Below, one piece after another: positions 1 to 8,957 of a stretch of 8,957 nt of DNA. Both the position numbers and the translations under genes were made by a program. Below the pieces are notes generated by a model that saw nothing but the letters and a program-made list of their open reading frames with translations, did not search any database and was not told the origin of the DNA. Every line of letters begins with the position of its first letter. Position 1 is the first letter of the stretch. The stretch comes from a virus (Duplodnaviria; Heunggongvirae; Uroviricota; Caudoviricetes), in the IMG/VR virus record IMGVR_UViG_2737471848_000002, positions 1 to 8,957 of that record; one strand, 5' to 3'.

Positions 1-65
1 ACTTTCCAGAACCATACGAATCGCCCGCTGACGGACTTCGGGGGAAAAACGAGTATTTTTAGTCA
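1..65 (-). CDS. IS3-family transposase OrfA (HTH subunit), N-terminal 22 codons only; truncated by the window edge
   Basis: Minus-strand ATG at 65-63; translation MTKNTRFSPEVRQRAIRMVLES matches the conserved N-terminus of IS3-family OrfA proteins as I recall them. Confidence 0.65.
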
Positions 66-120
66 TCCTGTTTACCTCTTTCTCAGGGAGTTTAGTCTCC
101 AGGATTTCCGGGGCGGTTCA
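1..120 (-). mobile_element. IS3-family insertion sequence, terminal fragment (IS629/IS1203-like end: inverted repeat, leader and start of orfA); the element continues beyond the left window edge
   Basis: Reverse complement of 1-120 reads TGAACCGCCCCGGAAATCCTGGAGACTAAACTCCCTGAGAAAGAGGTAAACAGG followed by ATG ACT AAA AAT ACT CGT..., i.e. a TGAACCG-type terminal inverted repeat, a GAGG Shine-Dalgarno and the start of an OrfA-like ORF. The outermost base of the element is at 120. Specific IS name is from memory and not verified. Confidence 0.7.
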
Positions 121-166
121 TGCAGAGAATGGCTGCTGCAATTGAGAATTACTGGAGTGAACCATA

Positions 167-457
167 ATGGCTAACCTACGCAAAGAAGCGCGCGGCAGAG
201 AATGCCAGGTACGTATTTACGGCATATGCAATGGCAATCCTGAAACTACAGTTCTGGCACATTACCGGATGGCTGGAATTTGCGGAACGGGGATGAAGCC
301 TGACGACCTGATCGGTGCGTGGGCTTGTAGCGCGTGTCACGATGAAATCGACCGACGCACCCATAATCTCGACAACAAAGACGCCAGACTTTACCACCTC
401 GAAGGCGTGATCAGGACGCAGGCGATACTGCTGAAGGAGGGGAAGATTAAGTCATGA
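167..457 (+). CDS. Nin-region DUF1364-family protein (YbcO-like putative zinc-binding nuclease), 96 aa
   Basis: ORF 167-457 with GGAG at 152-155 upstream. Five Cys including a CSACH motif (C13, C21, C39, C54, C57). Size and pattern match my recollection of E. coli DLP12 YbcO, which sits directly upstream of rusA in lambdoid prophages. The stop overlaps the rusA start (ATGA at 454-457). Confidence 0.6.
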   Translation: MANLRKEARGRECQVRIYGICNGNPETTVLAHYRMAGICGTGMKPDDLIGAWACSACHDEIDRRTHNLDNKDARLYHLEGVIRTQAILLKEGKIKS

Positions 458-816
458 ACGAATATCAGTTTGTGCTTCCTTACCCGCCGTCGGTGAACAC
501 CTACTGGCGAAGACGGGGAAACCAATACTACATCAGCGATAAAGGCCAGAAATACCGAAAAGACGTTCAGCAAATCATCCGCCAACTCAAGTTAGACATT
601 TTCACCAAATCACGACTCCGCATCAAAGTCATCGCAGACGTTCCAGACTCCCGCCGCCGCGACCTCGACAACATCCTGAAAGGTTTACTCGACTCCCTTA
701 TCCACGCCGGATTTGCGGAAGACGACGAGCAATTCGATGACATTCGCGTAATTCGTGGTGTGAAAGTACCAGGCGGACGGCTTGGAATAAAAATCACCGA
801 ACTGGAGAACGTATGA
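454..816 (+). CDS. rusA: Holliday junction resolvase RusA (crossover junction endodeoxyribonuclease), 120 aa
   Basis: Translation MNEYQFVLPYPPSVNTYWRRRG...DSRRRDLDNILKGLLDSL...GGRLGIKITELENV aligns along its whole length with E. coli RusA as recalled ([20 protein letters not shown]...DRRRRDLDNLQKA...GGRLELTITEMGNE), including the acidic catalytic cluster D-x4-D-x-D. Translationally coupled to both neighbours. Confidence 0.88.
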   Translation: MNEYQFVLPYPPSVNTYWRRRGNQYYISDKGQKYRKDVQQIIRQLKLDIFTKSRLRIKVIADVPDSRRRDLDNILKGLLDSLIHAGFAEDDEQFDDIRVIRGVKVPGGRLGIKITELENV

Positions 817-1001
817 ACGCCACAATTAAAACGATACCAGAGCTTCTTATCCAGACAAGAGGCAATCAGACCGAAGTGGCGAGGATGCTTTCCTGCGCAA
901 GAGGAACAGTGCTCAAGTACAACCGAGACAGAAAAGGCGAGCGTCACGTAATAGTTAACGGCGTCCTGATGGTCAAACAGGGCAAGAGGGGAAGACGATG
1001 A
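813..1001 (+). CDS. ninH: NinH-like small DNA-binding protein, 62 aa
   Basis: Translation MNATIKTIPELLIQTRGNQTEVARMLSCARGTVLKYNRDRKGERHVIVNGVLMV resembles lambda NinH as recalled (MTFSVKTIPDMLVEAYGNQTEVARRLKCSRGTVRKYVDDKDGKMHAIVNDVLMV). The start overlaps the rusA stop and the stop overlaps the Q start. Confidence 0.78.
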   Translation: MNATIKTIPELLIQTRGNQTEVARMLSCARGTVLKYNRDRKGERHVIVNGVLMVKQGKRGRR

Positions 1002-1621
1002 GACTCGAAAGCGTAGCTAAATTTCATTCGCCAAAAAGCCCGATGATGAGCGACTCACCACGGGCTACAGCTTCTGACTCTCTTTCCGGTACTGATGTGA
1101 TGGCTGCTATGGGGATGGCGCAATCACAAGCCGGATTCGGAATGGCTGCATTCTGCGGTAAGCATGAACTCAGCCAGAACGACAAACAAAAGGCTATCAA
1201 CTATCTGATGCAATTTGCACACAAGGTATCGGGGAAATACCGTGGTGTGGCAAAGCTCGAAGGAAATACTAAGGCAAAGGTACTGCAAGTGCTCGCAACA
1301 TTCGCTTATGCGGATTATTGCCGTAGTGCCGCGACGCCGGGCGCAAGATGCAGAGATTGCCACGGTACAGGTCGGGCAGTTGATATAGCAAAAACAGAGC
1401 AGTGGGGGAGAGTTGTTGAGAAAGAATGCGGAAGATGCAAAGGTGTCGGCTATTCAAGAATGCCAGCAAGCGCCGCATATCGCGCTGTAACGATGCTAAT
1501 CCCAAATCTTACTCAACCCACCTGGTCACGCACTGTTAAGCCGCTGTATGACGCTCTGGTGGTTCAATGCCACAAGGAAGAGTCAATCGCAGACAACATT
1601 TTGAATGCAGTCACACGTTAG
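998..1621 (+). CDS. Q: Late-gene antitermination protein Q (lambda type), 207 aa
   Basis: 207-aa translation MRLESVAKFHSPKSPMMSDSPRATASD... with the C-terminal CRDCHGTGR...CGRCKGVG zinc-finger region is, as far as I can recall, essentially identical to phage lambda Q. It is followed by a lambda-like pR' promoter. Confidence 0.92.
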   Translation: MRLESVAKFHSPKSPMMSDSPRATASDSLSGTDVMAAMGMAQSQAGFGMAAFCGKHELSQNDKQKAINYLMQFAHKVSGKYRGVAKLEGNTKAKVLQVLATFAYADYCRSAATPGARCRDCHGTGRAVDIAKTEQWGRVVEKECGRCKGVGYSRMPASAAYRAVTMLIPNLTQPTWSRTVKPLYDALVVQCHKEESIADNILNAVTR

Positions 1622-1664
1622 CAGCATGATTGCCACGGATGGCAACATATTAACGGCATGATAT

Positions 1665-1720
1665 TGACTTTTTGAATAAAGTTGGGTAAATTTGACTCTA
1701 ACGATGGGTTGCTGCCTTCG
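1665..1720 (+). promoter_or_regulatory. Late promoter pR' with overlapping Q-utilisation (qut) site and initial transcribed pause region
   Basis: -35 TTGACT at 1665-1670, 17-bp spacer, -10 TAAATT at 1688-1693, predicted start near 1700, then AACGATGGG in the initial transcribed region. This matches the lambda pR' architecture I recall, placed immediately downstream of Q. Confidence 0.75.
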
Positions 1721-1723
1721 TTC

Positions 1724-1760
1724 AAGCCCTGATATTAACGTCTCGGGGCTTTTTGCGTTT
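1724..1760 (+). terminator. Putative promoter-proximal terminator (tR'-like) that Q-modified RNA polymerase would read through
   Basis: AAGCCC (1724-1729) pairs with GGGCTT (1746-1751), followed by TTTTGCGTTTT. The stem is short with a 16-nt loop, so intrinsic termination strength is uncertain. Confidence 0.4.
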
Positions 1761-2071
1761 TAAGCACAACGGAAAGCCTTCTTTCATGCCCTGCTTAGGC
1801 TCGACACTAAGTATTTGGGAGAGTTGGCTTCCCCATGTGGTTAAAACAGGGTTTGTAATGGGTACTCAGCCAAAGAACCTTCCTGTAGGGCGCTGAGCTA
1901 AGTCTCACGTAGTAGCCACCACATCCTAACCTGCTACCTCAGGAAATCGGTCGAAAGACGCCTGATAAACGTAACTGGTCCCCTTCAGCTATGGCTAGAC
2001 CGGCCAGTCGAAAAGCAGTATCGTCACTGCCTGCCATAGCGAACATAGACGAGCAACTAGACGAGGTTGTT

Positions 2072-2347
2072 ATGGAAAAAATCTCTGGAAGAGAACTGCA
2101 TTTTCTCAATCGAATTCTTCAATTTAAGCAGGAGAGAATTGCTGATTCTGACGTACAGGATGATGAGATTCTCATGGTTGACTCATTGGTCCGTCATGGA
2201 TATCTTGCTGTTGGCTTTTTCGACCGTGATAATAACGGCGGATATCATAGCTTAATGCAATACTACTCTCTTACCGAACTTGGCGTTGCAGCTCATAAAG
2301 ATGAATGGAAATGGAGAGGGAATCCAAATTCAAATAAAGGTCGCTAA
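2072..2347 (+). CDS. Hypothetical protein, 91 aa, acidic; moron ORF under pR'/Q control; no family recognised
   Basis: ORF with GAGG at 2063-2066 five nt upstream of ATG 2072. The in-frame upstream ATG at 1991 (118-aa version) has no Shine-Dalgarno and lies inside an 8-bp inverted repeat. The stop codon is embedded in a strong intrinsic terminator. Only one other + ORF (2067-2255, internal alternate frame) and no minus-strand ORF of 60 aa or more compete here. Confidence 0.5.
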   Translation: MEKISGRELHFLNRILQFKQERIADSDVQDDEILMVDSLVRHGYLAVGFFDRDNNGGYHSLMQYYSLTELGVAAHKDEWKWRGNPNSNKGR

Positions 2348-2363
2348 GGCGGCCTTTTTATTG
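2336..2363 (+). terminator. Rho-independent terminator overlapping the stop codon of the moron ORF
   Basis: AAAGGTCGC - TAAG - GCGGCCTTT followed by TTATTG: a GC-rich stem with one G-U pair, a tetraloop and a T-tract. Confidence 0.6.
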
Positions 2364-2652
2364 CACGACATTTCTGAAAGCGCATTCCACCAAAAACCAG
2401 ACAGACAAAACCCTCACCTTATCCGCTGTGGCTACGGTGCGGTGTGCTTTGCATAAAAGAAAACCAGCTCAATGGCTGGCTTCGTGAAAGCGGGTGGCAA
2501 GAGGTTGCGCTAACAACCTGATGCCGTTTTGCCCGTGCATATCGGTCACGAACAAATCTGATTACTAAACACAGTAGCCTGGATTTGTTCTATCAGTAAT
2601 CGACCTTATTCCTAATTAAATAGAGCAAATCCCCTCAATGAAGGGGTAGAGC

Positions 2653-2856
2653 ATGTACCGTATGGACAAAATCAGAGAATGGTTCAGTTACAGCTTCGGA
2701 GGACTGACTGCGATGGGTGGCATTCTCTCCCTGAATGACTGGGCTGTCATCATTGGTATTCTTTGTACTGTCGGCACATTTGGCATCAACTGGTACTACA
2801 AGCGCAAAGAGCGCGAGGACAGATTGAATGGCAATGTCACCGGCACTACGAAATAG
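2653..2856 (+). CDS. Class II holin of the phage 21 S21 / DLP12 EssD type (pinholin) with a dual-start motif, 67 aa
   Basis: Translation [57 protein letters not shown] has two hydrophobic segments, a Gly/Ala/Ser-rich first TMD and a charged C-terminus. The M-Y-R-M start mirrors the M-K-S-M dual start of S21. AAGGGG Shine-Dalgarno at 2641-2646. Sits immediately upstream of a SAR endolysin. Confidence 0.8.
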
Positions 2857-3331
2857 CGTAATAGCGGCGATAAGTGGCGGGGCTATTGCTATAGCATCTG
2901 TGTTAATCACTGGCCCAAGTGGTAACGATGGTCTGGAAGGTGTGAGACATAATCCTTACAAAGACATAGTTGGTGTATGGACTGTATGTTACGGGCATAC
3001 AGGAAAAGACATCATGCTCGGTAAAACGTATACCGAAGCAGAATGCAAAGCTCTCCTGAATAAAGACCTTGCCACGGTCGCCAGACAAATTAACCCGTAC
3101 ATCAAAGTCGATATACCGGAAACAACGCGCGGCGCTCTTTACTCGTTCGTCTACAACGTGGGGGCTGGCAATTTCAGAACATCGACGCTTCTTCGCAAAA
3201 TAAACCAGGGTGATATCAAAGGCGCATGTGACCAGCTACGTCGCTGGACATACGCTGGCGGTAAGCAATGGAAAGGGCTGATGACTCGCCGTGAGATTGA
3301 GCGTGAAGTCTGTTTATGGGGGCAGCAATGA
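2828..3331 (+). CDS. SAR (signal-arrest-release) endolysin, T4-lysozyme-like glycoside hydrolase family 24, R21/P1 Lyz type
   Basis: N-terminal Gly/Ala-rich weakly hydrophobic SAR segment [19 protein letters not shown], followed by the catalytic triad E-x8-D-x5-T in [17 protein letters not shown]. Near-collinear with the phage 21 / DLP12 endolysin as recalled. GAGGA at 2815-2819. The start overlaps the holin 3' end. Confidence 0.88.
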
Positions 3332-3765
3332 GCAGAGTAACCGCGATTATCTCCGCTCTGGTTATCTGCATCATCGTCTGCCTGTCATGGGCTGTTAATC
3401 ATTACCGTGATAAAGCCATTGCCTATAAAGAACAGCGCGATAAGGCCACGTACATCATTGCTGACATGCAGAAGCGTCAACGTGACGTAGCAGAACTCGA
3501 TGCCAGATATACAAAGGAGCTTGCTGATGCTAACGCGACTATCGAAAGTCTCCGTGCTGATGTTTCTGCTGGTCGTAAGCGCCTGCAAGTCGCCGCCACC
3601 TGTGCAAAGTCAACGACCGGAGCCAGCAGCATGGGCGATGGAGAAAGCCCAAGACTTACAGCAGATGCTGAACTCAATTATTACCGTCTCCGAAGTGGAA
3701 TCGACAGGATAACCGCGCAGGTTAACTACCTGCAGGAGTACATCAGGACGCAATGCCTGAAGTAA
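3328..3765 (+). CDS. Rz: Rz i-spanin (inner-membrane spanin subunit)
   Basis: Translation from ATG 3328, [28 protein letters not shown]..., matches the lambda Rz N-terminus as recalled: one N-terminal TMD and a coiled-coil periplasmic domain. ATGA overlap with the endolysin stop. GGGGG Shine-Dalgarno at 3318-3322. The track ORF start at 3316 lacks a Shine-Dalgarno. Confidence 0.85.
3527..3712 (+). CDS. Rz1: Rz1 o-spanin (outer-membrane lipoprotein spanin subunit), embedded in the +1 frame of Rz
   Basis: Internal ATG at 3527 preceded by AAGGAG (3513-3518). Signal peptide [20 protein letters not shown] with lipobox V-S-A-C, then a Pro-rich mature region ([13 protein letters not shown]) and a C-terminus resembling lambda Rz1 (NSIITVSE versus NGIISPSE). 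Wholly contained within Rz. Confidence 0.7.
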
Positions 3766-3797
3766 TTTTTTTGCAAATCACAAAGTCCATTTAATGA

Positions 3798-3820
3798 GCC
3801 TCGCGATGCGGGGCTTTTTT
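3798..3820 (+). terminator. Rho-independent terminator after the lysis cassette (first of a tandem pair)
   Basis: GCCTCG - CGATG - CGGGGC (one G-U pair) followed by TTTTTT. Confidence 0.6.
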
Positions 3821-3827
3821 GCAATAA

Positions 3828-3852
3828 ATGCGTACCGCAACGCATGTTTTTT
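3828..3852 (+). terminator. Rho-independent terminator (second of the tandem pair)
   Basis: ATGCGT - ACCGCA - ACGCAT perfect 6-bp stem followed by GTTTTTT. Confidence 0.55.
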
Positions 3853-3967
3853 ACACCGAACCTGACCCTTTGGAATGGGCCTTTGAGGATACCAGTTAGT
3901 GCTGGCGAGCCTCGGTGGGCTGGTTTCCTGTGCGGCAAAGGTTCATTTCAAATGGTAGGTAAACGTT

Positions 3968-4489
3968 ATGAATATCGTGCCACTTAATTACAAAGGTGAA
4001 ATTGTCAGTTTCAACACTGATGGTTGGATCAACGTCACAGGTGTTGCTGAGAGATTTGGGAAACGCATTGATAACTGGATGCGTTTGGCAGAAACGCTTG
4101 AATACGTTCGTGCTTTAGACGAAGCGTTGACCGGGAAAGAATCTCAAATTTTACATCCCTCACAATCGAGGTATGTAAAAACCAGCAAGGCACGAAAGGA
4201 CAGGGGTGGTGGTACGTGGCTACATCCAAAACTTTCAGTTGCATTTGCCCGTTGGTGTGATGCTCGTTTTGCTGTGTGGTGCGACCTGCACATTGATAGT
4301 CTGCTTCGCGGTGAACTGACTGAGCAGCAGAAATATGAGCAAGCATGTCGCATTCGCGATGACCGGAAATCAAAAGCCAGCAATGGGGCAAGAGAGATGG
4401 CTCGCTGGCGATGGGATAAGCCGGTTATTGAAGCAAATGTCGAGTACTGGCGCGAGCAACTGCAGTTGACTCTCGATATCGCTTGCTGA
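3968..4489 (+). CDS. KilA-N domain-containing protein (putative DNA-binding / antirepressor-like accessory protein), 173 aa
   Basis: ORF with AGGT at 3957-3960 seven nt upstream of the ATG. The N-terminal region MNIVPLNYKGEIVSFNTDGWINVTGVAERFGK...W...L resembles KilA-N/APSES-type domains as I recall them. Family assignment is from memory. Confidence 0.6.
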   Translation: MNIVPLNYKGEIVSFNTDGWINVTGVAERFGKRIDNWMRLAETLEYVRALDEALTGKESQILHPSQSRYVKTSKARKDRGGGTWLHPKLSVAFARWCDARFAVWCDLHIDSLLRGELTEQQKYEQACRIRDDRKSKASNGAREMARWRWDKPVIEANVEYWREQLQLTLDIAC

Positions 4490-4560
4490 TGGCAAACGCA
4501 AAACTGCGTTATCGGAAAAATCAAAGCATTACGAGAACTGAGCAACAGCTATCCATTACA

Positions 4561-4589
4561 AAGCCCATCTACGGGTGGGCTTGATAATG
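4561..4589 (+). repeat. Hairpin-GATAATG element, copy 1 (AAGCCCA / TGGGCTT stem followed by GATAATG)
   Basis: 7-bp inverted repeat 4561-4567 / 4576-4582 with an 8-nt loop containing CTAC, directly followed by GATAATG. A second copy with the same architecture lies at 5169-5201. Confidence 0.5.
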
Positions 4590-4779
4590 AAACCGGAATT
4601 TATTCTGGGTAACCAGTTACGGCAGTACAGCGAAACAACCCAAGCCAGTAAGTGGGGAAATAACACTGGCAGCCACTGAAAGATGAACCTCCTGCCTTAT
4701 GGCAAAAAAAAGATTCTTTGTGGTGGCGGACTGATGGAAAGACATCCTAATCAAGCAACCACTCCACAGGGTCATAATT

Positions 4780-5160
4780 ATGAACGACCAGCAAATCGAA
4801 AAAGAAATCGTTGAGAAAGGCAAAACCGCTCCGAGAATCACTCCGCAGCACATCGAAGACGTGATTAAAAGCGAGCATTACTTTACTGCTTATGATGGAC
4901 GAAATGGTGCCATTTCCAGCAACGAATATTGTGGCAGGGAAAAACCAGAAGAAGGCGATCGTGATTTATCACCATTGAAGTTGCTCACTTTCTGCGTACT
5001 GGTGCTGAAGAATGGCTTCACCGTCACCGGAGAGAGTGCCTGTGCAAGCCCGGAAAACTTTGATGCAGAAATTGGTCGGAAGATTGCCCGGCAAAATGCT
5101 GTAAACAAAATCTGGATGCTCGAAGGTTACTTGCTGAAGCAGAAGCTAAGCGAACAGTAG
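4780..5160 (+). CDS. Phage gp49/gp66-family protein (Phage_gp49_66-like), function unknown, 126 aa
   Basis: 126-aa ORF. The C-terminal segment GESACASPENFDAEIGRKIARQNAVNKIWMLEGYLL matches my recollection of the conserved core of the N4 gp49 / Sf6 gp66 family, which occupies this lysis-to-terminase position in P22-like phages. Confidence 0.55.
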   Translation: MNDQQIEKEIVEKGKTAPRITPQHIEDVIKSEHYFTAYDGRNGAISSNEYCGREKPEEGDRDLSPLKLLTFCVLVLKNGFTVTGESACASPENFDAEIGRKIARQNAVNKIWMLEGYLLKQKLSEQ

Positions 5161-5168
5161 TTATTACA

Positions 5169-5201
5169 AAAGCCATTCCCTACAGAGTGGCTTTGATAAT
5201 G
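5169..5201 (+). repeat. Hairpin-GATAATG element, copy 2 (AAAGCCA / TGGCTTT stem followed by GATAATG)
   Basis: 7-bp inverted repeat 5169-5175 / 5188-5194 with a 12-nt loop containing CTAC, followed by GATAATGG. Paralogous to 4561-4589. Confidence 0.5.
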
Positions 5202-5216
5202 GCTTATACCCTACAC

Positions 5217-5242
5217 GGGATATCTTAACTGATATCCCTTTT
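5217..5242 (+). terminator. Perfect palindrome GGGATATC-TTAACT-GATATCCC followed by TTTT (terminator-like, or an operator-type protein-binding site)
   Basis: 8-bp perfect inverted repeat with a 6-nt loop and a T4 tract, between the gp49-like stop (5160) and the Shine-Dalgarno of the next ORF. Confidence 0.35.
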
Positions 5243-5263
5243 AACGGATAAACGGAGCCAACA

Positions 5264-5506
5264 ATGGCAGAGATTATTCCTATGACTGAAGAACAGAAAT
5301 TCCAGTTAGAGATTTACAAACTGGTCATGAACCAGAACGAAGCCGCAGAGGAAGCATTTCAGTTCATTGGCACTGACGAGCTGAAGCTTGAGCTATTCAA
5401 AATTCACTTCCAGTCAGGCGGCGCTAATTCAGATATCACGACCCGCACTATCGAAGCGGTGCGTAAATCGAAGGAAGCGTTAGACCTGTTCACCACCGGA
5501 GCATGA
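5264..5506 (+). CDS. Hypothetical protein, 80 aa (positional equivalent of the small orphan ORF upstream of gene 3 in P22-like phages)
   Basis: ORF with ACGGAG Shine-Dalgarno 6 nt upstream. Acidic, predicted helical; no family recognised. Confidence 0.5.
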   Translation: MAEIIPMTEEQKFQLEIYKLVMNQNEAAEEAFQFIGTDELKLELFKIHFQSGGANSDITTRTIEAVRKSKEALDLFTTGA

Positions 5507-5541
5507 TGCTCAACCTGAAATGACAACTAAGTGAGATGAAT

Positions 5542-6030
5542 ATGGCAGCACCAAAGGGCAACCGATTTTGGGAGGCCCGCAGTAGTCATGGGCGAAATCC
5601 TAAATTCGAATCGCCTGAGGCGCTGTGGGCTGCTTGTTGTGAATACTTCGAGTGGGCTGATGATAACCCACTATGGGAGGGTAAGGTATTTTCATATCAG
5701 GGAGAAATAATTAAGGCTAATGTCCCTAAGATGCGAGCCATGACTATTTCAGGATTGTGTACCTTCCTTGATATCACCAGGCAAACGTGGGGAACCTTCC
5801 GGTCAATGGAAGGTTTTTCTGACGTCACATCGCGAGCGGAAGACATCATCTACGACCAGAAATTCTCTGGCGCAGCCGCTGACCTTCTCAACGCTAACAT
5901 CATCGCCCGTGATTTGGGCATCAAAGAGCAGTCGCAAGTTGAAGACGTGACACCTGATAAGGGAGATCGCGATAAGCGGCGCTCTCGTATCAAGGAGCTA
6001 TTCAACCGTGGAACTGGACGCGATTCTTGA
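5542..6030 (+). CDS. Terminase small subunit, P22 gp3 type (DNA-packaging protein gp3), 162 aa
   Basis: Translation [44 protein letters not shown]... resembles the P22-like gp3 family as recalled. GTGAG Shine-Dalgarno 6 nt upstream of ATG 5542 (the track ORF starts two codons earlier at 5536). Immediately precedes and overlaps the large terminase gene. Confidence 0.8.
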
Positions 6031-7507
6031 TAACTTGAGCGACGAAGAGCAAATCGAATTGCTCGAGCTACTCGAAGAAGAAGAGAACTACCGGAACACA
6101 CACCTGCTATATGAATTTACGCCATACAGCAAACAGCGTGAGTTCATCGACGCCGGGCATGACTATCCAGAGCGCTGTTTTATGGCTGGTAACCAGCTTG
6201 GTAAGTCATTTACTGGTGCTGCTGAAGTCGCATTTCACCTTACCGGGCGTTATCCGGGCACAAAAGGATATCCTGCTGATGGTAAATATGGTGGGGAGTG
6301 GAAAGGTAAGCGTTTCTATGAGCCTGTTGTCTTCTGGATTGGTGGCGAGACAAACGAGACGGTAACCAAAACGACTCAACGCATCCTGTGCGGTCGTATT
6401 GAAGAGAATGATGAACCGGGCTACGGTTCAATACCGAAAGAGGACATCATTAGCTGGAAGAAGTCTCCTTTCTTTCCGAACCTTGTTGATCACCTTCTGG
6501 TTAAGCATCACACGGCTGATGGCGTTGAAGATGGCATTTCAATCTGCTACTTCAAGCCATACTCGCAAGGTCGTGCTCGCTGGCAGGGTGACACAATCCA
6601 CGGAGTGTGGTTTGACGAAGAACCACCATACAGCATTTATGGCGAAGGGCTTACCCGTACCAACAAATACGGGCAATTCTCAATCCTGACGTTTACCCCG
6701 CTGATGGGGATGTCTGACGTTGTTACCAAGTTCCTGAAGAATCCCAGCAAGTCGCAGAAAGTGGTCAACATGACCATCTATGACGCTGAGCACTATACCG
6801 ACGAGCAGAAAGAGCAAATCATCGCATCCTATCCTGAGCATGAGAGAGAGGCGCGTGCTCGCGGTATTCCTACGATGGGTAGTGGTCGAATCTTCCAGAT
6901 ACCGGAAGAGACGATTAAGTGTCAGCCGTTCGAGTGTCCTGATCACTTCTACGTAATTGGCGGTATGGATTTCGGATGGGATCACCCGCAGGCGCAGGTT
7001 CAGCTTTGGTGGGATAAGGACGCAGACACAATCTACGTTTCACGCGTGTGGAAGGCGAAAGAAAAGACAGCCGTTCAGGCGTGGGGAGCAGTTAAATCAT
7101 GGGCGCATAAAGTGCCAACCGCATGGCCTCATGACGGAAACCAGCACGAGAAGGGTGGCGGTGAGCAGCTCAAAGGGCAGTATGCAGACGCTGGATTTAT
7201 GATGTTGCAGGAGCATGCGACATGGCCTGATGGCGGTAATGCTGTTGAGCCTGGCATCACTGAATTGCGCGACATGATGCTTGATGGTCGCTTCAAAGTA
7301 TTCAACACCTGTGAGCCATTCTTTGAGGAGTTCCGCCTCTATCACCGTGATGAAAACGGGAAGATCGTCAAGCTTAACGACGACGTTCTCTCAGCCGTTC
7401 GCTATGCATACATGATGCGCCGCTTCGCAAAAATGATGCGCGACATCAAAAAACCAAAAGAGAAAAAGATACCAGCCCCAATCAGGCCCATCGCACGGAG
7501 AACTTAA
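6008..7507 (+). CDS. Terminase large subunit, P22 gp2 type (headful packaging ATPase/nuclease), 499 aa
   Basis: 499-aa ORF starting at GTG 6008 (no in-frame ATG for about 58 codons), with AGGAG at 5993-5997. Acidic N-terminus [18 protein letters not shown], Walker-A-like GNQLGKS, and length and sequence matching P22 gp2 as recalled. Overlaps the terS 3' end by 23 nt. Confidence 0.9.
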
Positions 7508-8957
7508 ATGGCCGACGAAAACAGACTCAATTCCATTCTGTGTAAGTTTGACGCAGACTGGATGGCGAGCGATGAAGCCAGAACCGAGGCGACAAATGAC
7601 CTGTATTTTAGCCGAGTGTCGCAATGGGATGACTGGCTATCAAACTACACCACCCTGCAATATCGCGGACAATTCGATGTTGTCCGCCCGGTGGTCAGGA
7701 AGCTGGTCGCAGAGATGCGCCGGAACCCTATCGACGTTCTCTTCCGACCAAAAGACGGTGCTAATCCTGATGCAGCCGATGTGTTGATGGGAATGTATCG
7801 TACTGATATGCGCCATAACACGGCAAAGATTGCCGTTAACGTTGGAGTTCGTGAGCAGATAGAGTCCGGCGTTGGTGCATGGCGTCTGCTCACGCAGTAC
7901 GAAGACAACGACCCAACAAGCAACAATCAGGTAATCCGACGCCTTCCAATCCATGAAGCCTGCTCACACGTCATATGGGATGCCAACAGCAAGCAGATGG
8001 ATAAGAGCGACGCCAAGCACTGCACGGTGATTAACGCCTTGTCACGCAATGGTTGGAAAGAGTTCGCAGAGGATTACGGCATTGATCCTGACACGCTGCC
8101 ATCTTTCCAGAATCCGAACGATACATGGCTGTTTCCGTGGGTATCGAATGATGTCGTCTACGTCGCTGAGTATTACGAGGTCGAAGAGAAGAAAGAGAAA
8201 GTCTTCATCTACCGCGACCCGCTGACAGGTGAGCCGGTCAGCTATTACCAGCAGGATATCAAAGACGTCATCGATGACCTGGCTAATCGTGGATTCATTA
8301 AGGTAGCAGAGCGTAAGGTCAAGCGTCGGCGTGTGTATAAGTCGATCATCACCTGCACGCAGATACTGAAAGACCGCGAGAAGATAGCCGGAGAGCATAT
8401 TCCAATCGTTCCAGTATATGGCGAATGGTCATTCGCTGGTGACAAGGAGTGCTACGAAGGAGTGGTAAGGCTGACGAAAGACGGTCAACGCCTTCGTAAC
8501 ATGATCATGTCATTCAACGCCGATATTGTTGCTCGTTCACCGAAGAAGAAACCGACTTTCTTCCCTGAGCAAATCGAAGGCTACGAATACATGTACGGTG
8601 GAAATGATGACTATCCGTACTATCTGCAGAACAGGACCGATGAAAACGGTAACGACCTGCCGATTGGTCCAATCTCCTACATGGAAAACCCTGAAGTGCC
8701 GCAAGCCAACGCTTACATGCTTGAGGCTGCCACCAACGCAGTGAAAGAGGTGGCTAGTCTTGGTGTGGATGCGCAGGCAGCAAACTCTCAGGTCGCTTTC
8801 GATACCGTCAATCAACTGAACATGCGGGCAGACCTTGAGACATACGTGTTTCAGGATAACCTGGCTACCGCAATGCGACGTGATGGCGAGATTTATGCCT
8901 CAATGGTCAACGATATTTATGACGTTCCTCGTCATGTAATGTCAACGACGGATGAAA
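7508..8957 (+). CDS. Portal protein, P22 gp1 type; 5' partial (N-terminal ~483 codons, continues beyond the right window edge)
   Basis: ATG at 7508 directly after the terL stop (TAA 7505-7507). The frame stays open to the window end, which is why it is absent from the ORF track. Translation [18 protein letters not shown]...[34 protein letters not shown]...[22 protein letters not shown]...[25 protein letters not shown] is collinear with the P22 portal as recalled. Confidence 0.9.

Follow-up and report, generated by a model that had tools for sequence, protein, structure and literature searches.

The interval from 1761 to 2071 of an 8,957-nucleotide (nt) stretch of viral DNA (IMG/VR record IMGVR_UViG_2737471848_000002, positions 1 to 8,957, Caudoviricetes, hereafter the window) ends in a conserved folded RNA that is almost certainly a member of the int-alpA family, placed directly before a small open reading frame (ORF) that starts at 2072. 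The reading that we prefer, and to which we give a probability of about 0.55, is that this leader controls the translation of the ORF acting in cis, because the loop of its third helix is complementary to the Shine-Dalgarno region that follows it. A preliminary description of the interval had offered a cis-regulatory RNA as one of several possibilities, and it is this one that the evidence supports best.

The search of the window with all Rfam models returned one significant match, RF02996 (int-alpA), at 1988-2054 on the + strand, with 43.7 bits vs. a gathering score of 35.8, an E value of 1.3e-6, and model positions 1-71 of 71 covered. The inverted repeat already pointed out in the preliminary description, GCTATGGC at 1988-1995 and GCCATAGC at 2033-2040 (8 nt, 100% complementary, 37 nt apart), was returned with exactly the same coordinates by an inverted-repeat scan and is the first helix (P1) of this RNA, whose parts are as follows, the helices being given by both the minimum-free-energy (MFE) fold and the Rfam model:

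1988-2040, + strand: int-alpA three-way junction (Rfam match, MFE fold, and covariation)
1988-1995/2033-2040, + strand: P1
1998-2000/2007-2009, + strand: P2
2015-2018/2027-2030, + strand: P3, with the loop UAUCGUCA at 2019-2026

The linkers of the junction are UA, GAAAA, and CU, and all the conserved junction strings are present, namely CUAG at 1995-1998, CGAAAAGC at 2009-2016, and GCCUG at 2029-2033. Taken alone, the 8-bp repeat would be unexceptional, since it is accompanied within 1.1 kb by others (12 inverted repeats of at least 7 nt in all, one of them a perfect 9-mer); it is more than chance because of the Rfam match, the rarity of the junction pattern (one CTAG..CGAAAAGC in the window vs. 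0.01 expected), and the covariation of the helices among relatives. These relatives were collected by scanning viral contigs with the junction pattern, which gave 120 loci, and a filter of at least 6 of 7 pairs in P1 then left 81 matches, that is, 57 distinct sequences with 45 different P1 arms; the Rfam threshold was passed by 18 of the 20 viral loci tested from the junction-pattern set. In 40 distinct relatives the helices pair in 97.7% of cells vs. 63.4% in shuffled controls, and the covariation score is 0.871 vs. 0.177 when shuffled, a value reached by none of 500 shuffles, while sliding the partners by 1-3 columns leaves only 0.08-0.15. Both sides change at 11 of the 15 base pairs, and P2 and P3, neither of which was pre-selected, both covary. 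The wobble bias of P1 across the relatives, with 20 G-U vs. 6 A-C pairs, favours an RNA read from this strand.

The suspicion of a conserved folded RNA upstream of the ORF is thus borne out by the Rfam search and by covariation, the two lines of evidence that the preliminary description had proposed to look at together with RNA folding. The folding itself gave a divided answer: the MFE fold yields the same three helices as the Rfam model, and the MFE z-scores are no better than those of shuffled sequences (-0.78 for 1984-2090, -0.49 for 1761-2090, and +1.4 and +1.2 for two further folds). We therefore discarded thermodynamic stability as evidence of structure, its z-scores being uninformative.

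The int-alpA motif was described by Weinberg et al. (2017, Nucleic Acids Res 45:10811, PMC5737381), a paper whose main text does not discuss it, and the searched literature gave no functional study of int-alpA, only mentions by name in two papers. The window's copy has in common with the family the full-length match, the three-stem junction, the invariant CUAG, CGAAAAGC, and GCCUG, and a phage or prophage setting, but it differs in lying in a late operon between the antiterminator gene Q and the lysis genes without int or alpA neighbours, no integrase or alpA gene being found within the 9-kb window. It differs further from a family typed as small RNA in having, like 54 of 57 relatives, a start codon at most 80 nt away on its downstream side and in a P3 loop that matches the ribosome-binding region. 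The finding is, then, mostly explained by a known motif family; what is new is a testable mechanism and an adjoining unclassified element, taken up below.

The testable mechanism starts from the loop of P3, where UCGUC (2021-2025) is complementary to two identical segments of the tail, GACGA at 2048-2052 and GACGA at 2060-2064. The heptamer AGACGAG that contains them occurs only twice in the 9-kb window, at these two sites:

2047-2053, + strand: site 1, AGACGAG (GACGA 2048-2052), proposed pseudoknot partner and decoy of the ribosome-binding site, predicted duplex with the loop -7.1 kcal/mol
2052-2071, + strand: weak hairpin AGCAACU/GGUUGUU of the MFE fold, -5.1 kcal/mol, its loop exposing site 2
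2059-2065, + strand: site 2, AGACGAG (GACGA 2060-2064), overlapping the Shine-Dalgarno GAGG at 2063-2066, duplex with the loop -7.1 kcal/mol

At least one Watson-Crick loop match of 5 nt or more is present in 46 of 54 distinct members, and in 39 of the 54 such a match touches the Shine-Dalgarno sequence, vs. 5-7% in controls. Both sites, one lying 4-16 nt after P1 and the other touching the Shine-Dalgarno sequence, each with at least 5 nt of Watson-Crick pairing, were found in 32 of the 54, whereas the same two-site test gave 0.0% with loops borrowed from other members and 2.1% once each member's own loop had been shuffled. The loop and its sites vary widely from member to member (UGCCU/AGGCA, CCACGA/UCGUGG, UCCGC/GCGGA), and three-way compensation, that is, of the loop and both sites, is seen inside the window's own subfamily:

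Window: P3 loop UCGUC, site 1 GACGA, site 2 GACGA
Vibrio phage PS15B-5: P3 loop UCGUA, site 1 UUACGAU, site 2 UACGA
Pseudomonas phage IME307: P3 loop ACCUCA, site 1 UGAGG, site 2 GAGGU

This loop-to-tail pairing lies outside the Rfam RF02996 model, and no description of it was found in the searched literature.

We propose that the junction would hold the P3 loop UCGUC available to either of the two tail sites. Pairing of the loop with site 1 would form a pseudoknot and leave the ribosome-binding site free, while pairing with site 2, which is presented in a hairpin loop over GAGG, would make a kissing contact and block ribosome binding, and in this way the leader would set the translation level of the ORF that starts at 2072. 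The default state is expected to be "on", given that the match at site 1 is equal to or longer than that at site 2 in most members and that site 1 is nearer to the loop. The transcript itself would be provided by Q-modified RNA polymerase reading through the terminator tR'. If cis control is correct, int-alpA would be a compact and naturally orthogonal translational control module, and it would explain how accessory phage genes bring their own expression control from one genome to another.

The placement of the motif in its relatives is consistent with this. Of the 57 members, 54 have on the same strand a start codon with a Shine-Dalgarno sequence at most 80 nt downstream, the distance being 30-39 nt in 28. 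The 57 downstream proteins fall into 42 unrelated clusters, among which are HNH_3+AP2, GIY-YIG+NUMOD3, and HNH endonucleases as well as Rha, besides a large number of small unknown proteins. Phages of six genera (Enterobacter, Salmonella, Klebsiella, Edwardsiella, Pantoea, and Vibrio) have the 82-nt leader in common at 75-96% identity, and Salmonella phage BIS08P22 carries the same leader (38.5 bits), spacer, Shine-Dalgarno sequence, and terminator around an unrelated cargo and at a different site, in the position of the window's gp49-like gene. By these comparisons the int-alpA leader appears to be portable across accessory phage genes. Start-codon proximity, covariation of the loop with two tail sites, and 42 cargo families are also what turn int-alpA, one of many orphan RNA motifs from comparative genomics, into a case that can now be tested.

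The diversity of cargo bears as well on a riboswitch, with the junction as the presumed binding site of a small molecule and the loop, paired alternatively with one or the other tail site, as expression platform. Its size of 53 nt is compact and aptamer-like, the Rfam consensus gives some 17 nucleotides of the junction and its closing pairs in uppercase (they are fixed by the search pattern in the present set), and the proposed loop-to-tail pseudoknot lies beside the Shine-Dalgarno sequence, as in several pseudoknot riboswitches. The SAM-II and preQ1 classes are indeed pseudoknot expression platforms that hide the Shine-Dalgarno sequence, and they resemble the window's RNA, as proposed here, in that the loop of a compact fold in the 5' untranslated region pairs at the ribosome-binding site. 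In contrast to them, the 42 unrelated downstream clusters show no common metabolic theme or gene function, the loop and target sequences are hypervariable, no ligand is implied, and the target is duplicated, while we know of no riboswitch design with duplicated identical target sites. A riboswitch is, for these reasons, very improbable.

Upstream of P1, TATAAT-like hexamers are found 0-8 nt away in 20 of 56 contexts and almost never at 14-49 nt, the 3' end of a transfer RNA (tRNA) lies 2-4 nt before P1 in 9 of 57, and in L097 and in the Serratia locus L197 the motif directly follows the U-run of tR'. Because of these three kinds of context, the int-alpA motif usually stands at a transcript or processing boundary. 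Such placement, directly after tRNAs or terminators, would also suit a structural 5' cap or boundary element, in which the junction, with or without a site 1 pseudoknot, would shield the mRNA from RNase E or RppH or insulate the ribosome-binding site, and the likeness of site 2 would be incidental. In the 20 contexts with a TATAAT-like hexamer P1 would lie at or near the 5' end of the transcript, and 5'-terminal stem-loops are known to stabilise E. coli mRNAs, such as that of ompA. However, site 2 covaries with the loop, touches the Shine-Dalgarno sequence far more often than in the controls, and changes along with the loop in the Vibrio and Pseudomonas variants, and the motif of the window lies about 290 nt from the start of transcription at the late promoter pR', so that only processing of the RNA would bring it to a 5' end. 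We consider a purely structural role quite unlikely.

Some of the tRNA-adjacent members deserve a separate mention. In L037, L096, L099, L125, and L029, all from sample 3300045988, the motif stands 2-4 nt after suppressor-type tRNAs with the anticodons UUA or UCA, as called by ARAGORN, which suggests phages with recoded stop codons; the ORF calls in the contigs of this sample used the standard bacterial code and are possibly wrong. Another viral contig that holds an int-alpA motif also has a match to the GP20-b RNA (RF03003, 50.6 bits) at L006:4621-4676.

Returning to control in cis, several points weigh against it. Rfam types int-alpA as a small RNA and not as cis-regulatory. A U-rich run of at least 6 U in 9 nt directly follows P1 in 16 of the 57 members and could terminate transcription there, releasing a short RNA, and two identical targets are unneeded for a simple cis switch and fit a trans-acting RNA equally well. 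The pairing in the window is just 5 bp, and 22 of the 54 members lack both sites at the 5-nt Watson-Crick cut-off. The novelty of the pairing is also to be weighed, given that the site 1 pseudoknot may already have been annotated in the original motif description, the Rfam consensus tail AgGG being complementary to the consensus loop CCuU. As for the sampling, P1 was pre-filtered, which leaves only P2, P3, and the loop-to-tail test as unbiased, and the search pattern fixed the junction nucleotides, so that more divergent members are unsampled.

The first of these points lead to the idea of a trans-acting small RNA, similar to c4 of P1/P7 or CI of P4, in which the junction would be released by processing or by termination at a U-run and its loop would pair with the sites on other copies of the mRNA, resulting in negative feedback or in cross-regulation and immunity between cassettes with the same loop. 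Besides the Rfam class and the U-runs, one loop with two targets per transcript would fit this idea, as would the nine members that begin 2-4 nt behind the 3' end of a tRNA, a place at which the RNA is expected to be processed, and the high diversification of loops and targets, a feature also known from heteroimmune c4 RNAs. In L029, a single viral contig carries two int-alpA motifs 340 nt apart (8870-8923 and 9211-9264) with different loops, AAGCCUUA and AACCGUGA, each of which matches only its own downstream sites, and this absence of cross-match is likewise in keeping with action in trans; the two motifs look like orthogonal pairs within one genome. Nevertheless, the window's subfamily has no U-run after P1 (GAACAUAG), no CCA-like 3' end follows P1 for recognition by RNase P, and the Rfam C4 model has no match in the window at E values up to 10. 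The short and fixed distance to the start codon is equally well explained in cis. On balance, we regard action in trans as unlikely, although it is the main rival of control in cis.

The c4 and CI RNAs are excised by RNase P, together with PNPase, to give a stable RNA of about 77 nt that acts in trans, a mechanism that is said to have been worked out by Citron and Schuster in 1990, by Hartmann and colleagues in 1995, and by Forti and colleagues. The role of c4 in controlling ant is cited in PMC8201110. Like c4 and CI, int-alpA is a small multi-stem RNA at the 5' end of an operon, exposing a short segment against repeated targets on the same transcript, of which one coincides with the ribosome-binding site of the gene that follows, and its pairing sequences are diversified between relatives. 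It differs in the lack of a match to the C4 covariance model, in having both targets downstream of the RNA in the window, and in its gene, which is not icd or ant and belongs to a late operon and not to an immunity region; only some other int-alpA members precede Rha-type genes. By analogy, and without homology, the closest functional parallel to int-alpA would be the antisense RNAs c4 of P1/P7 and CI of P4.

As the preliminary description had maintained, the true start of the cassette ORF is very probably at 2072, giving 91 amino acids (aa), and not at 1991. A GAGG lies 6 nt upstream of 2072, the same RNA stands at the same distance before unrelated ORFs, and the homologues of Yersinia and Sodalis and three Logan clusters are called at 91 aa. 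The ATG at 1991 does lie inside the 5' arm of the repeat and in frame with the ATG at 2072, as had been noted, but the argument that the 8-bp stem keeps it from use by burying it has to be given up, given that this ATG simply has no ribosome-binding site and is inside a conserved RNA. The point has a practical side, since RefSeq calls the cassette ORF as 118 aa from ATG 1991 (e.g., WP_203070230.1, strain HL15), running the protein through the int-alpA motif; a similar over-extended call is found in Pseudomonas phage IME307 (L201, coding sequence from 593). It was also correct that no ORF of at least 60 aa lies within 1761-2071, and the ORFs that touch the interval are the following:

1753-1896, + strand: 47 aa
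1807-1908, - strand: 33 aa
1939-2109, - strand: 56 aa
Opening at ATG 1991, + strand: 118-aa frame

The leader and its ORF belong to a cassette of about 600 bp, carrying one small ORF, that is absent from HK022, HK97, and the mEp phages. Alignment with HK022, together with a search for distant matches, puts the insertion at about 1768-2362, directly behind ...GCGTTTTAAGCAC, and from 2363 onward HK022, HK97, and the mEp phages match again; about 175 phage records match both flanks of 1600-2660 and cover just about 45% of it, and 1768-2362 is without a match in HK022 and some 170 further records. Two E. coli lysogens that hold this prophage, OkiPb01684 and 20AR0354, are 100% identical to the window over the 660 nt compared in the cassette region. 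The cassette contains:

2072-2347, + strand: cassette ORF, 91 aa, start 2072
2336-2362, + strand: putative cassette terminator, AAAGGTCGC-TAAG-GCGGCCTTT and then TTATT, with the stop codon in the loop, read from the sequence

The 91-aa ORF has no Pfam, PHROG, or NCBIfam match, its AlphaFold model is unusable, with a predicted local distance difference test (pLDDT) score of 52, and it is rare: 5.8 billion proteins yielded only 9 clusters, in most of which the length is 91 aa. The homologues from Serratia are of 118 and 80 aa, and those in the Yersinia, Sodalis, and Serratia prophages all retain the leader and the terminator AAAGGTCGCTnAGGCGGCCTTTTT. The 9-bp hairpin of this terminator (2336-2357) is conserved in five cassettes and was not flagged by a simple terminator scan. 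The hairpin AAAGGTCGC..GCGGCCTTT is further seen to close cassettes with unrelated cargo (2336-2362 in the window, L003:3549-3575), and with both a 5' RNA leader and a 3' end in common, these could be possible recombination handles for the exchange of cargo.

A promoter scan found no sigma-70-like promoter between 1693 and 2177, nor any ahead of the int-alpA motif within 1761-1987, while relatives do carry a -10 box just upstream of P1. Lacking a promoter in this copy, the cassette would be expressed by Q-dependent read-through. A moron, in the sense of Hendrix and colleagues, is an extra gene with its own promoter and terminator between conserved phage genes, and the cassette is similar in being inserted relative to close relatives, in having one small ORF, and in ending with a hairpin and a U-run. 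It is unlike a moron in that no promoter was found in the window and that its portable conserved parts are an RNA leader and a terminator common to unrelated cargo.

The remainder of the interval is best understood from the late promoter and terminator that precede it:

1664-1692, + strand: pR'-like late promoter, -35/-10 TTGACT, 17 nt, TAAATT, with the -10 box at 1687-1692 (promoter scan), upstream of the studied interval
1724-1760, + strand: terminator tR', hairpin AAGCCCTGA/TCGGGGCTT (1724-1751) and then the U-run TTTTTGCGTTTT (inverted repeat), which aligns with tR' of HK022 and lambda
1757-1847, + strand: stem A, a long imperfect hairpin with 29-nt arms, 76% complementary (inverted repeat), present in the MFE fold of 1761-2090
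1846-1926, + strand: element 2, about 80 nt, with the near-invariant core TGTAATGGGTACTCAGCCAAAGAACCTTCCTGTAGGGCGCTGAGCTAAG..CACGTAG..GCCACCACAT, a core absent from lambda
1927-1987, + strand: spacer, whose first 20 nt or so are still homologous to the tail of element 2

The position of the pR'-like site agrees with the annotated pR'/qut of HK620, HK022, and the mEp phages, and the tR' hairpin, the "first hairpin" from which the preliminary description measured its leader, ends the 6S-like RNA started at pR'. That description had taken the following 300 nt or so as one structured leader, a view that did not hold, since three separable modules are found apart and in another order elsewhere. By its alignments, the interval reads as a mosaic late-operon leader composed of stem A, element 2, and the int-alpA cassette leader at 1988-2071. 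The cassette precedes the lambda-type hairpin in the Serratia locus L197 and follows it in the window, a difference of order from which the modules appear to be independent.

The window is like lambda in having a Q of the same family (PF03589), pR'/qut, tR', and a divergent copy of the hairpin after tR', and it is unlike lambda in carrying the element-2 core and the int-alpA cassette. A long late leader with few or no ORFs, which had been called unusual, is normal for lambda-like phages: in lambda itself about 400 nt separate tR' from S, a stretch that begins with the same hairpin and contains no more of an ORF than the 3' tail of the annotated orf-64, whose larger part overlaps the 6S region. 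The suggested analogy with lambda 6S RNA also fails, because the RNA equivalent to 6S runs from pR' to tR' and stops at about 1760, upstream of the interval. It is hardly probable that the abundant pR' transcript yields, by cutting or termination, a discrete small RNA of this kind over most of 1761-2071. Transcription from pR' reaches the interval only by reading through tR', and element 2 has its own terminator in most homologues, where an RNA of stem A plus element 2 would be conceivable, but in the window the terminator after element 2 has been replaced by the cassette, and the three modules are separate and reordered elsewhere.

Stem A is a divergent copy of the hairpin found directly after tR' in lambda (ACAACAGGTAAGAGCATTG...CAGTGCTCTTTCCGTTGTG; L198:990-1063), to which, to our knowledge, no function has been assigned. 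Its alignment with lambda and with one prophage each of E. coli and Serratia showed compensatory changes, and in L129, L130, and L131 the two arms covary, G-U wobbles included. Its 3' arm GUUGUGG could alternatively pair with a CCACAAC downstream of element 2, a possible switch.

Element 2 is the adjoining unclassified element referred to above, and we collected 18 distinct versions of it (homologues at L002:3012-3095 and L005:2512-2597 and in L131, L138, L186, and L191). It lies downstream of a Q-type antiterminator gene in all four loci whose upstream gene was examined, and a terminator-like hairpin follows within about 100 nt in all seven lineages examined, confirmed by the terminator scan in L002 and L005 only. 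No Rfam model matches it, relaxed thresholds giving only noise; RNAalifold placed 17 pairs in its core, none of them compensatory; and a pattern scan of genome contigs returned only chance matches in unrelated taxa. It is present in 5 of 5426 complete E. coli genomes. Conservation as a coding sequence, either as a 12-aa mini-ORF (1858-1896) or as the minus-strand ORF at 1807-1908, was considered and rejected, given that six homologues have a 2-nt length change in the A-rich loop of the core, which rules out coding, and that L129 has non-conservative changes. In the related Klebsiella phages KpF5 and vB_Kpn_RAH1 the same upstream leader module is succeeded by a tRNA gene, and the second of these phages retains the downstream terminator module as well. 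Four homologues of element 2 have tRNA genes 250-350 nt upstream of it. ARAGORN found no tRNA or transfer-messenger RNA in the window, nor any at element 2 in nine homologous loci.

Taking both parts together, we offer tentatively, as possible and not as probable, that int-alpA, instead of being a free-standing small RNA, forms the leading half of a portable riboregulator, one that moves together with accessory genes (morons and homing endonucleases, for example) and works either in cis or in trans, and that element 2 is an undescribed non-coding RNA occupying the tRNA slot of lambdoid late leaders. In such a riboregulator, the rigid junction would show a hypervariable loop as its "address", and this loop would have two copies of that address to pair with, of which one covers the ribosome-binding site. 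Each cassette would then have, if this is true, a private channel of translational control.

The window as a whole is the late region of a lambdoid, P22/HK022-like prophage, with the gene order YbcO, RusA, NinH, Q, holin, lysozyme, Rz/Rz1, KilA-N protein, gp49-like protein, DUF2560, terminase, and portal. The features on either side of the interval and its cassette are:

998-1621: Q, lambda family (PF03589)
2363-2652, + strand: distal late leader of the HK022/lambda type, up to the holin gene, and right-hand boundary of the insertion (HK022 alignment; same sequence in lambda)
2653-2856: holin, HP1 family

Immediately upstream of the holin gene there are two inverted repeats, one perfect over 9 bp (2550-2558/2582-2590) and one of 13 nt (2581-2593/2620-2632), both in leader sequence common to lambda and HK022, although the holin here is different, of the HP1 type. 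In a Yersinia proxima prophage (L196:3516-4007), a gene for an AcrIF11-like ADP-ribosyltransferase (PF26151) adjoins the same cassette between Q and holin, and this site appears to gather accessory and anti-defence genes.

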